From a virus (Duplodnaviria; Heunggongvirae; Uroviricota; Caudoviricetes), in IMG/VR virus record IMGVR_UViG_2874933748_000005: a DNA stretch of 48,295 nucleotides, one strand, 5' to 3'. Shown in pieces: positions 39,001 to 45,000 of the stretch. Numbering within the stretch: position 1 is the first letter of the stretch; the number at the start of each line of letters is the position of its first letter. Position numbers: made by a program.

Positions 39001-42000
39001 TTTCAGGATTGCCATTACATACGCCAGGGATTCTTACCTGGCATTCCCGACCACGCGCTGCTTTTCTCAAATCAGCCATGATTCCTCCTTGCTGCCAGTC
39101 GCAACCATTTTTTATCAACCAGGCTAGCGGTATATCCGAGCAGTGTTGGTATTTCGGATGGCTTCAGCTCAGGCTTACGCTTACGACGATTTGATACTCT
39201 GTAGATGTGCCCGTTCATGACACGAATAAGCGGTGTAGCCATTACGCCTCCTGCTTATCGCGCAGCTGCTGGTATTCACAGCTCTGCGGAATTGTCAGGT
39301 GGCAGCCGATATTCATCGCCCAGGCTTCGACTTTGCACAGGAAGATGTACATCTCGCCGGTTTCCAGCTCTGACGTATGGCGGAGGGATTGGACGGTGGT
39401 GACCTCGCCGGACACGACATCTACACGGTCTTTGCTTTCGTAGCCGAGATAGGTGTGCTTCATCGCGTCTTTGACCCACTCAGGCGTAGCGAAGGTCTTG
39501 CCGCGGGCGATGAGATATTCGCTGATCTCCGTGTACCACATGTGGCTGAGCGCGTTCTGCGACAGGCTGCGCTTCTCGCGCCACGGCTTAACCTGCAGGC
39601 GTAAGCATTGCCCGGCATCCAGCAATGGCTGAATCTGCTGGCCGATGGCCGCGAAGTTACCGCGATGGAGTTTGATGCCGTCTACTGGCAGAGTCATACG
39701 GCCTCCCTAACGGAAACCGCAGAATGCAGAAAATCGCAGGTGCATTTCTGCATCTGTGACAAGGTGATGAGTTCAGATTGTGGTCGCATTTAAGTCCCCT
39801 TAAATGCGCAGAAGTCACCGGAGTTGTTCAGGCTCCGATGAGAGGATTATGGCGGATTGATTACGATAAATCAAAACTATCTTGAAGCCAAAACAGTGAT
39901 CTTCGCTTTAAAAACCTTGTATACTTTCACCTAATCACAGCCAGAACTATGGATCTAACCAATGACCAACAAAGAAAACAAAGATAAATATATTAACAAG
40001 TTCAAGAAAGAGCTTTCAAAATATATACAACCAACTGCTGGAGTGGACATTCAATTATTTAACTCTAAGGATGGTGGTGGTGTAATTAAAGCCACTTTGA
40101 ATAGAAGTGGAAAAAGAAAATCATCTATTGCTGGTAATTTTACTAAATTAGGTGAGGCAATTACCTCGAGTGGGCAGAGGGTTTTTGGTGGTGATCTATC
40201 AAATGTGAATTTTTACGGAACAAATACGATTTTTGATGGAGATACAATATTTTTAATTAAATCACCTGATTCAGAGGAGTGGTCATCACAAAAAGCTTCC
40301 AAAGACGTAGAGGGCATCGTATTTGGAGGGAAAAAATGATTAACATTACTACTAAGGATGCACTCAAGTCAGTGGTGAAGTAAGAGATCTAGTAATTCTT
40401 CTTGAAACTGATGGAAAAACGGTGTCTGATTATTTGCAGCCAATCCCTCCCAAAAAAGATACACACTGGAGCATGATTTTCATTCCGGTAGCAATTTATA
40501 TACTACTTAATCTTGTATACATTATTGCTCACCCATTATTTCCTGAAAAATATCTAAAAACATCAACATCTATATTTCTATTCATTTCCTTCATATTAAG
40601 TGCAATAGTAGCATATTTTGTTTTCCATAAGCATAAATCTGCCACTCTATCCATATGCAGCTTAGTGTTCTTAGTGTTAATTGTAGGTGCTAACGTAGGG
40701 TTTATCAGTTACAGCGACCTAACACAAAAAGCGACGCAAAAATTAGATAGTTTGTCTAAATAATTATGTTGCCATGCGAAGTATGCATGGCTGCATGTCT
40801 GCCTTAAATATTATTCTTTATTATCTTCTTTACCACTTCGGTGATGCTGCCAACTTACTGATTTAGTGTATGATGGTGTTTTTGAGGTGCTCCAGTGGCT
40901 TCTGTTTCTATCAGCTGTCCCTCCTGTTCAGCTACTGACGGGGTGGTGCGTAACGGCAAAAGCACTGCCGGACATCAGCGCTATCTCTGCTCTCACTGCC
41001 GTAAAACATGGCAACTGCAGTTCACTTACACCGCTTCTCAACCCGGTACGCACCAGAAAATCATTGATATTGTCAGCGCCAGTGATATAAGACGGTAATT
41101 CGCCATTTGGATTGTCCGCTCCACCCAACATGTTGTTTCCTTAAGGTTCTCACACCAGAAAGGACATCAACATGCTGAGCAGAGAGGACTTTTACATGAT
41201 AAAGCAAATGCACCAGCAGGGCGCGTACATCGTCGATATTGCGACTCAGATTGGTTGCTCTGAACGGACGGTCAGACGCTACCTCAAATACCCTGAACCG
41301 CCAGCCAGAAAGACCCGCCACAAAATGGTTAAGCTGAAACCGTTTATGGATTACATCGACATGCGCCTGGCAGAGAATGTCTGGAATAGCGAGGTTATCT
41401 TCGCGGAGATTAAGGCAATGGGTTATACGGGCGGACGTTCCATGCTGCGTTACTACATCCAGCCCAAACGTAAAATGCGTCCGTCAAAAAGAACAGTTCG
41501 CTTCGAAACTCAGCCTGGATACCAGCTCCAGCATGACTGGGGCGAAGTTGAGGTGGAGGTTGCCGGGCAACGGTGCAAAGTTAACTTTGCGGTTAATACG
41601 CTGGGGTTCTCCCGCAGCTTCCATGTCTTCGCCGCACCAAAACAGGATGCTGAGCATACCTACGAATCACTGGTTCGCGCCTTCCGCTACTTCGGTGGTT
41701 GTGTGAAAACGGTGCTGGTTGATAACCAGAAGGCTGCGGTGCTGAAGAATAACAACGGAAAGTCGTGTTCAACTCCGATTCCTGTTGCTGGCTGACCACT
41801 ATAACTTCCTGCCACGGGCATGCCGTCCACGCAGGGCCAGAACAAAAGGTAAGGTTGAGCGGATGGTGAAATACCTCAAGGAGAACTTCTTCGTCCGGTA
41901 CCGCAGGTTCGACAGCTTCACTCATGTCAATCAACAACTGGAGCAATGGATAGCCGATGTGGCTGACAAACGGGAGCTTCGCCAGTTCAAAGAAACGCCG

Positions 42001-45000
42001 GAACAGCGCTTCGCGCTGGAGCAGGAACATCTGCAGCCGTTACCGGATACAGACTTCGATACCAGTTACTTCGATATCCGCCATGTGTCCTGGGACAGCT
42101 ATATCGAGGTTGGTGGTAATCGTTACAGCGTTCCCGAAGCGCTGTGTGGTCAGCCGGTATCGATACGAATATCGCTGGATGACGAGTTGCGGATCTACAG
42201 TAATGAGAAACTGGTGGCCTCACATCGCCTCTGTTCAGCATCGTCTGGCTGGCAGACAGTGCCGGAGCATCACGCCCCGCTCTGGCAGCAGGTCAGTCAG
42301 GTGGAACATCGACCACTGAGTGCCTATGAGGAGCTGTTGTGATGCATGAACTGGAAGTCCTGCTGAGTCGCCTGAAAATGGAGCATCTGAGTTATCACGT
42401 TGAAAGCCTGCTGGAACAGGCAGCTAAAAAAGAGCTGAACTACCGGGAGTTCCTGTGCATGGCGCTACAGCAGGAATGGAACGGCAGGCATCAGCGCGGT
42501 ATGGAGTCCGGGCTGAAGCAGGCTCGTCTGCCGTGGGTCAAAACGCTGGAGCAGTTCGACTTTACCTTCCAGCCGGGCATCGACCGTAAGGTTGTCCGGG
42601 AACTGGCTGGTCTGGCGTTCGTGGAGCGCAGCGAAAACGTGATCCTGCTGGGCCCTCCTGGTGTCGGAAAAACTCATCTGGCCATAGCTCTTGGCGTGAA
42701 AGCGGTGGATGCGGGACATCGGGTACTGTTTATGCCACTGGACAGACTGATCGCGACACTGATGAAAGCGAAACAGGAAAACCGGCTGGAGCGTCAGCTA
42801 CAGCAACTGAGTTATGCCCGGGTGTTGATCCTGGATGAAATAGGCTATCTGCCGATGAACAGAGAGGAAGCCAGTCTGTTCTTCCGGCTACTGAACCGTC
42901 GATATGAAAAAGCGAGCATCATACTGACGTCAAACAAAGGGTTCGCAGACTGGGGAGAAATGTTCGGAGATCACGTACTGGCAACAGCGATCCTGGATCG
43001 GCTGCTACATCACTCAACCACGCTGAATATCAAAGGAGAGAGTTACCGGTTAAAAGAGAAACGTAAAGCTGAAGTGCTGACCAAAAACACAACGCCAATC
43101 AGTGATGATGAAATGGTGGAAAGCGGACAGCATCAGTAACGAAAGTATTTAGCGGGCATGAAAATGGCAAATAACGGTCAAACATCGTGGCGTTGACAAT
43201 ATGGCCATGAATGGCGTTGGATGCCGGGCAACTGCACGCATTATGGGCGTTGGCCTCAACACGATTTTACGTCACTTAAAAAACTCAGGCCGCAGTCGGT
43301 AACCTCGCGCATACAGCCGGGCAGTGACGTCATCGTCTGCGCGGAAATGGACGAACAGTGGGGCTATGTCGGGGCTAAATCGCGCCAGCGCTGGCTGTTT
43401 TACGCGTATGACAGTCTCCGGAAGACGGTTGTTGCGCACGTATTCGGTGAACGCACTATGGCGACGCTGGGGCGTCTTATGAGCCTGCTGTCACCCTTTG
43501 ACGTGGTGATATGGATGACGGATGGCTGGCCGCTGTATGAATCCCGCCTGAAGGGAAAGCTGCACGTAATCAGCAAGCGATATACGCAGCGAATTGAGCG
43601 GCATAACCTGAATCTGAGGCAGCACCTGACACGGCTGGGACGGAAGTCGCTGTCGTTCTCAAAATCGGTGGAGCTGCATGACAAAGTCATCGGGCATTAT
43701 CTGAACATAAAACACTATCAATAAGTTGGAGTCATTACCCGCTTGCAGTAACGGCGAAAGGGGCAATGACAGCGCTGCCATGTCGACAAGAACTGGAATA
43801 GTGAGAAGTAAACGGCGAAGTCGCTCTTATCTCTAAATAGGACGTGAATTTTTTAACGACAGGTAGGTAATTATGGCACTGAATATTCCATTCAGAAATG
43901 CGTACTATCGTTTTGCATCCAGTTACTCATTTCTCTTTTTTATTTCCTGGTCGCTGTGGTGGTCGTTATACGCTATTTGGCTGAAAGGACATCTAGGGTT
44001 GACAGGGACGGAATTAGGTACACTTTATTCGGTCAACCAGTTTACCAGCATTCTATTTATGATGTTCTACGGCATCGTTCAGGATAAACTCGGTCTGAAG
44101 AAACCGCTCATCTGGTGTATGAGTTTCATCCTGGTCTTGACCGGACCGTTTATGATTTACGTTTATGAACCGTTACTGCAAAGCAATTTTTCTGTAGGTC
44201 TAATTCTGGGAGCGCTCTTTTTTGGCCTGGGGTATCTGGCGGGATGCGGTTTGCTTGACAGCTTCACCGAAAAAATGGCGCGAAATTTTCATTTCGAATA
44301 TGGAACAGCGCGCGCCTGGGGATCTTTTGGCTATGCTATTGGCGCGTTCTTTGCCGGCATATTTTTTAGTATCAGTCCCCATATCAACTTCTGGTTGGTC
44401 TCGCTATTTGGCGCTGTATTTATGATGATCAACATGTGTTTTAAAGATAAGGATCACCAGTGCGTAGCGGCGGATGCGGGAGGGGTAAAAAAAGAGGATT
44501 TTATCGCAGTTTTCAAGGATCGAAACTTCTGGGTTTTCGTCATATTTATTGTGGGGACGTGGTCTTTCTATAACATTTTTGATCAACAACTTTTTCCTGT
44601 CTTTTATGCAGGTTTATTCGAATCACACGATGTAGGAACGCGCCTGTATGGTTATCTCAACTCATTCCAGGTGGTACTCGAAGCGCTATGCATGGCGATT
44701 ATTCCTTTCTTTGTGAATCGGGTAGGGCCAAAAAATGCATTACTTATCGGTGTTGTGATTATGGCGTTGCGTATCCTTTCCTGCGCGCTGTTCGTTAACC
44801 CCTGGATTATTTCATTAGTGAAGCTGTTACATGCCATTGAGGTTCCACTTTGTGTCATATCCGTCTTCAAATACAGCGTGGCAAATTTTGATAAGCGCCT
44901 GTCGTCGACGATCTTTCTGATTGGTTTTCAAATTGCCAGTTCGCTTGGGATTGTGCTGCTTTCAACGCCGACTGGGATACTCTTTGACCACGCAGGCTAC

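Follow-up and report, generated by a model that had tools for sequence, protein, structure and literature searches.

The window analyzed here, a 48,295-nucleotide (nt) stretch of DNA deposited as the Caudoviricetes record IMGVR_UViG_2874933748_000005, contained an insertion sequence (IS) of the IS21 family nested within a copy of IS1. The outer IS1 occupied positions 40840-43739, starting with the left end GGTGATGCTGCCAACTTACTGAT and closing with the right end ATCAATAAGTTGGAGTCATTACC. The inner block (41071-43198) carried istA followed by istB between the termini TGTCAG and TTGACA, and ATAT was present on either side of it (Table 1). Excision of the block together with one ATAT copy (41071-43202) left an IS1 of 768 bp that was 99.7-99.9% identical to the three other full IS1 copies of the window (5430-6197, 35396-36162, and 47309-48075). 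In uninterrupted IS1, the sequence around the entry point is CATTGATATGGCC, which places the insertion between IS1 nt 231 and 232, in insA. A preceding sequence-only reading had proposed an IS21-family element inside insA with a 4-bp ATAT duplication that reconstitutes IS1; the 768-bp product of excision bore this out, and the positions it gave for IS1, IS21, ATAT, and the split istA were all present in the sequence. Judged from the sequence, the nesting is the product of IS21 transposition into insA, and the structural resemblance is not due to chance.

Apart from the continuity of istA, the insert showed all the sequence-level features that define the IS21 family. Across its full length, the block shared 99.8% identity with 2130-bp elements from complete E. 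coli genomes. More than 700 E. coli genomes contained a near-full copy, and the top plasmid match of the block was a Shigella sonnei plasmid. RefSeq names the proteins of near-identical E. coli copies "IS21-like element IS21 family transposase" (istA, 390 amino acids [aa]) and "helper ATPase IstB" (265 aa). The ends were of the TG...CA type and were identical in five other copies, and 4-bp duplications (TATA, GAAA, TATG, and CCGG) bordered the element at four unrelated sites. The terminal inverted repeats had been described as clean, but they are imperfect, matching at 10/11 positions of the tips and 29/38 aligned columns when the right end is reverse-complemented. The istA stop codon TGA (42340-42342) overlapped the istB ATG. 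The pieces of istA matched the Pfam rve and helix-turn-helix (HTH) domains and Mu-transpos_C_2, the Mu-type C-terminal beta-barrel, as expected for a DDE transposase with N-terminal HTH domains and an RNase-H-like core, and the intact orthologous IstA scored 284.7 bits on NF033546 (cut-off 160).

Three known systems were compared with the insert. IS21, the prototype of its family, was first found on plasmid R68.45 and is 2131 bp long, with istA and istB. The copy in the window agrees with it in length, gene order, the overlap of the istA stop with the istB start, imperfect multi-repeat TG...CA ends, and the 4-bp duplication, and differs in the FC1653 assembly alone, where the loss of two single Gs splits istA. 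ISEc62, an IS21-family element of E. coli plasmids, shares family and architecture, but its DNA identity is only 85.6%, so that the insert is far nearer to copies labeled IS21. IS5376 of Geobacillus stearothermophilus is a distant relative of the same family for which IstA and IstB structures have been solved, and it was used only for placing catalytic residues and domains. Its IstA (PDB 8B4H) aligned over the full length (E=2e-82) with a conserved DDE triad, D122/D184/E230 in the present element, corresponding to D124/D187/E233 in IS5376 (PMC10122671).

Table 1. Features of the nested locus in the window, and IS21-into-IS1 insertion events with their duplicated targets.
Feature	Position	Strand	Basis
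IS1 left part: left inverted repeat (IRL), insA promoter, insA codons 1-59 (zinc-ribbon part), first ATAT at end	40840-41070	+	100% identity to nt 1-231 of other window IS1 copies; Pfam Zn_ribbon_InsA, E=1e-21
Target-site duplication ATAT, left copy	41067-41070		Comparison with uninterrupted IS1
IS21 copy, 2128 bp (intact copies 2130-2131 bp)	41071-43198	+	99.8% identity, 100% coverage to annotated E. coli copies; ends from four other insertion sites
IS21 left terminal inverted repeat, imperfect	41071-41108	+	Alignment with reverse complement of right end
istA 5' fragment, 207 aa: HTH domains, D122, D184; out-of-frame residues at end	41172-41795	+	Open reading frame (ORF); Pfam rve and HTH; alignment to 8B4H
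First 1-bp deletion: GG, against GGG (Gly196) in every other copy	41757-41758	+	Alignment
Second 1-bp deletion: G, against GG (Gly203 GGA) in every other copy	41777	+	Alignment
istA 3' fragment: E230 in KGKVE, beta-barrel, C-terminal tail	41785-42342	+	ORF; Pfam Mu-transpos_C_2, E=2e-18; rve_3
istB, intact, 265 aa, AAA+ helper ATPase	42342-43139	+	Pfam IstB_IS21, E=2.3e-90; NCBIfam NF038214, 299.6 bits (cut-off 200)
IS21 right terminal inverted repeat, ending TTGACA	43161-43198	+	Alignment with left end
Target-site duplication ATAT, right copy	43199-43202		Comparison with uninterrupted IS1
IS1 right part: insA 3' end (HTH), A6C motif, insB ORF, right inverted repeat	43199-43739	+	99.6-99.8% identity to nt 228-768 of other window IS1 copies; Pfam DDE_Tnp_IS1, E=1e-77; NCBIfam NF033558
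S. sonnei event in the window, target ATAT	IS1 nt 228-231		
E. coli TUM9757 event, target GAAA	IS1 nt 217-220 (locus 1717-1720)		
Plasmid pVTB432v-2 event, target TATG	IS1 nt 229-232 (locus 1733-1736)		
EC1722-1-type event, common to four strains, target CCGG	in insB		

In the family model, an IstA tetramer assembles on the element ends and IstB decamers bend the target (PMC10122671, PMC11208146). By analogy with other IS21 elements, the DDE transposase IstA would have synapsed the TG...CA ends, the AAA+ ATPase IstB would have captured and bent the target DNA, and staggered strand transfer would have generated the 4-bp duplication. Several Shigella sonnei strains probably inherited the insertion from an ancestor, in which IS21 would have entered insA and duplicated ATAT. 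The mechanism of the nested element is no departure from the family model.

Alignment with IS21 references, a check that the sequence-only reading had suggested, revealed two one-G deletions relative to an intact copy; in total, five differences were found, the remaining three being substitutions. The istA frame was thus split, as had been reported near 41780, not by a single frameshift but by two deletions 20 bp apart. The break lies between D184 and E230, which parts both aspartates from the glutamate. As written in the window, istA is predicted to be unable to yield an active transposase. No recoding signal was evident at the break, and neither deletion site carried a slippery motif. Exact look-up found no record of the 207-aa truncated IstA, which is a weak negative since such fragments get annotated as pseudogenes.

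Exact look-up of the IstB protein of the window returned one record only, CP037997.1, whose DNA is identical to the window. Homopolymer length errors are typical of both MinION and Ion Torrent reads. CP037997 is the Shigella sonnei FC1653 chromosome, a Unicycler assembly that combined 400-bp Ion Torrent PGM reads with MinION R9 1D reads and for which Pilon was used in polishing (PMC6836418). A 76-bp probe spanning both deletion sites had approximately 970 matches among complete E. coli genomes, the best at 76/78, and the deletions occurred in none of them. The neighboring 125-aa prophage protein led to three further assemblies (CP104423.1, CP151334.1, and JBEAAE010000002.1) with the same order of prophage gene, IS1 left part, IS21, IS1 right part, and cscB. 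All three had identical junctions, kept GGG and GG, and encoded a 390-aa istA. A fourth assembly, CP029794.1, shared the left junction with the window and then ran into a 100-N gap; it had been considered as an IS1-only empty site and was rejected on these grounds. Over a shared 12.4 kb, the window was 99.95% identical to CP151334.1, with three substitutions and three one-G deletions as the only differences. All three deletions fell within IS copies, namely two in IS21 and one GGGG to GGG contraction in the IS1 at 35396-36162. On the other hand, 23 kb of single-copy prophage DNA contained no uncompensated coding indels relative to an E. coli prophage of 97% identity.

These results suggest that the two istA deletions are probably homopolymer errors of the FC1653 MinION and Ion Torrent assembly. 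An artefact is more likely than biology because the defect is missing from the orthologues and from the approximately 970 copies, and because the G-run contractions are confined to IS copies. In this lineage, both istA and istB of the nested IS21 are intact, and the element is presumably autonomous. The earlier suggestion of a probable loss of autonomy therefore depends on a defect that is probably an assembly artefact, or at most private to FC1653, as the orthologous copy of the three assemblies has an intact istA and the approximately 970 E. coli copies lack the deletions. Taken as a whole, IS21-into-IS1 nesting combined with artefactual istA deletions is a well-supported account and the best explanation of the locus.

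The same type of contraction was observed in two IS1 copies of the window (35396-36162 and 47309-48075), which are 767 rather than 768 bp long owing to GGGG to GGG at IS1 nt ~400 (35795-97 in the first), a change that would frameshift insB. The orthologue of the first copy has GGGG in both CP151334.1 and CP104423.1, and the contraction is probably an assembly error of like kind.

The foremost alternative is that the deletions are real and private to FC1653, so that this IS21 copy would be non-autonomous and mobile only if other IS21 copies provided IstA in trans. The deletions do stand in the deposited sequence, neither istA fragment holds the full DDE triad, and one or two private IstB substitutions indicate that the copy departs from its orthologues anyway. 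Several further points weigh against the preferred explanation. A one-G deletion close by, at 40360, is genuine, as it is common to sister assemblies, and pseudogenes do build up in Shigella genomes. For an assembly polished with short reads, a pair of errors separated by 20 bp, in runs as short as GGG and GG, is somewhat unusual. Moreover, the three comparison assemblies were taken as S. sonnei with near-identity as the sole ground, and the identity of the element as IS21 itself follows RefSeq product names, not the R68.45 sequence. However, the deletions were found in 0/3 orthologous assemblies and 0/~970 E. coli copies, both are contractions of G-runs, a third private contraction lies in a neighboring IS1, and both sequencing technologies are prone to homopolymer errors. 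Real, strain-specific mutations are accordingly considered unlikely, though they are by far the most serious competitor.

Programmed ribosomal frameshifting, by which the split istA would be expressed and functional, is scarcely credible. Programmed -1 frameshifting is common among IS families such as IS1 and IS3, including the IS1 in the window, but istA is a single continuous 390-aa frame in all other copies, the orthologous one included, and restoring the frame would require two separate shifts 20 nt apart, with a slippery motif at neither site. Equally negligible is the idea that mis-assembly or recombination joined separate IS1 and IS21 copies into a chimera, with no transposition involved. 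In its favor, the genome is repeat-rich, with approximately 172 IS1 and approximately 50 IS21 annotations, and CP029794.1 shows, besides its 100-N gap, a duplication of an IS1 segment at the nested site. Against it, excision gives back an IS1 of exactly 768 bp, the target duplication measures 4 bp, and both junctions recur in three independently assembled genomes.

The transposase of IS1, an element of 768 bp, is the InsAB' fusion, made by -1 frameshifting at an A6C motif. The nested copy matches IS1 in its restored length, its inverted repeats (approximately 23 bp, 18/23 matching), insA, the A6C motif (TTAAAAAACTC at 43276-43286), and a 167-aa insB, and differs by the interruption of insA and by the absence of a 9-bp duplication at its present flanks. 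IS21 is placed after insA codon 59, between the InsA zinc-ribbon and HTH, and since insA is cut there, upstream of the A6C site, the nested IS1 would make neither InsA nor InsAB'. The insB gene had been described as remaining intact, which is correct for the ORF (43221-43724) but not for its use, as InsAB' is destroyed by the insertion and insB is useless alone. The only sigma-70-like site in the region was at 40847-40874, inside the IRL, and no hybrid outward promoter using the TTGACA of the IS21 right end passed the promoter scan. Both IS1 ends are intact, and the 2.9-kb composite could be mobile in trans via other IS1 copies. Exact-pattern scans of genome and metagenome contigs, plus E. coli complete genomes, found the ATAT IS1/IS21 left junction at no other locus. 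In CP104423.1, both IS1 copies read A7 where the A6C motif has A6 (the corresponding window positions are 35700 and 43276). This is more likely a homopolymer error of that assembly; if real, it would fuse insA and insB' in frame.

The nested locus lies between the prophage 125-aa gene and cscB. Its left flank belongs to the nin/replication region of a DLP12-like prophage, in which the P gene is cut, and its right flank holds the final 62 bp of cscK and then cscB. No target-site duplication (8-9 bp) of the nested IS1 was found at the present flanks (TACCACTTC vs. CGCTTGCAG). The 9 bp CGCTTGCAG at 43740-43748 recur inverted at 48076-48084, on the outer side of the inverted IS1 copy (47309-48075) that lies 3.6 kb downstream. 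Both of these flanks map to one cscK site of intact E. coli csc loci, and the DNA beyond the inverted IS1 is the upstream part of cscK. This pattern indicates one IS1 insertion into cscK, which would have been followed by inversion between two IS1 copies; the duplication of the nested IS1 would be missing because of this IS1-IS1 inversion. With the many IS1 and IS21 copies annotated in FC1653, such rearrangements are to be expected.

The remainder of the window was mostly prophage (6198-30000 and 36800-40839), punctuated by four IS1 copies. It included a lambda-like head and tail module, approximately 97% identical to E. coli prophages (terminase, portal, tape measure, J, and tail fibre), and a DLP12-like late/nin region (porin, quuD, rusA, ybcO, ninE, and ybcN). 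The prophage gene at 40336-40763, which encodes 142 aa in E. coli and overlaps the end of the 125-aa gene, was frameshifted by the GG to G change at 40360. This change lies in unique DNA and is common to three other assemblies of the lineage, and the gene looks like a genuine pseudogene. To the left of the nested IS1, a 31-bp stretch, TCCATTTAAAATGGGCTAAGACCTATAACCC, was present in E. coli, CP104423.1, JBEAAE010000002.1, and CP029794.1 and missing from the window (at 40804/40805) and CP151334.1; this difference is a small indel polymorphism. The IS1 at 35396-36162 is flanked by the 8-bp direct repeat CCAATTTT (35388-35395 and 36163-36170) and represents a simple insertion that duplicated 8 bp instead of 9 bp.

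The target choice of IS21 within IS1 was surveyed in 5426 E. coli complete genomes, using same-strand pieces only, so that events in the opposite orientation would be missed. Three independent same-orientation IS21-into-IS1 events were found (Table 1). Ten further E. coli hits with IS1 and IS21 close together were rejected as nested copies, since each was an IS21 left-end fragment into which IS1 had cut or a pair of distinct adjacent copies. Together with the window event, three of the four independent insertions, a small sample, fell within 16 bp of IS1 (nt 217-232; CAGAAAATCATTGATATGG; window 41056-41070 and 43203). It is possible, but so far only a tentative proposal, that this stretch is a preferred IS21 landing site. 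Kink-prone DNA has been suggested as a hot spot for IS21 (PMC11208146). A preferred site at IS1 nt 217-232 would fit the choice of an AT-rich, easily bent stretch by IstB and would provide a natural substrate for studies of IS21 target choice.

Nested IS elements are commonplace in Shigella, the genomes of which carry hundreds of IS copies. Both IS21 and IS1 are long known, and the nested copy is already present and annotated in public genomes; it offers nothing new. The locus represents routine nesting of two textbook elements and has little biological weight. It does call for caution, as single-base frameshifts in the repeats of MinION and Ion Torrent hybrid assemblies should not be taken for gene decay until sister genomes or reads have been consulted. 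For the S. sonnei lineage, the nested element, present in at least five assemblies, serves as a stable lineage marker.

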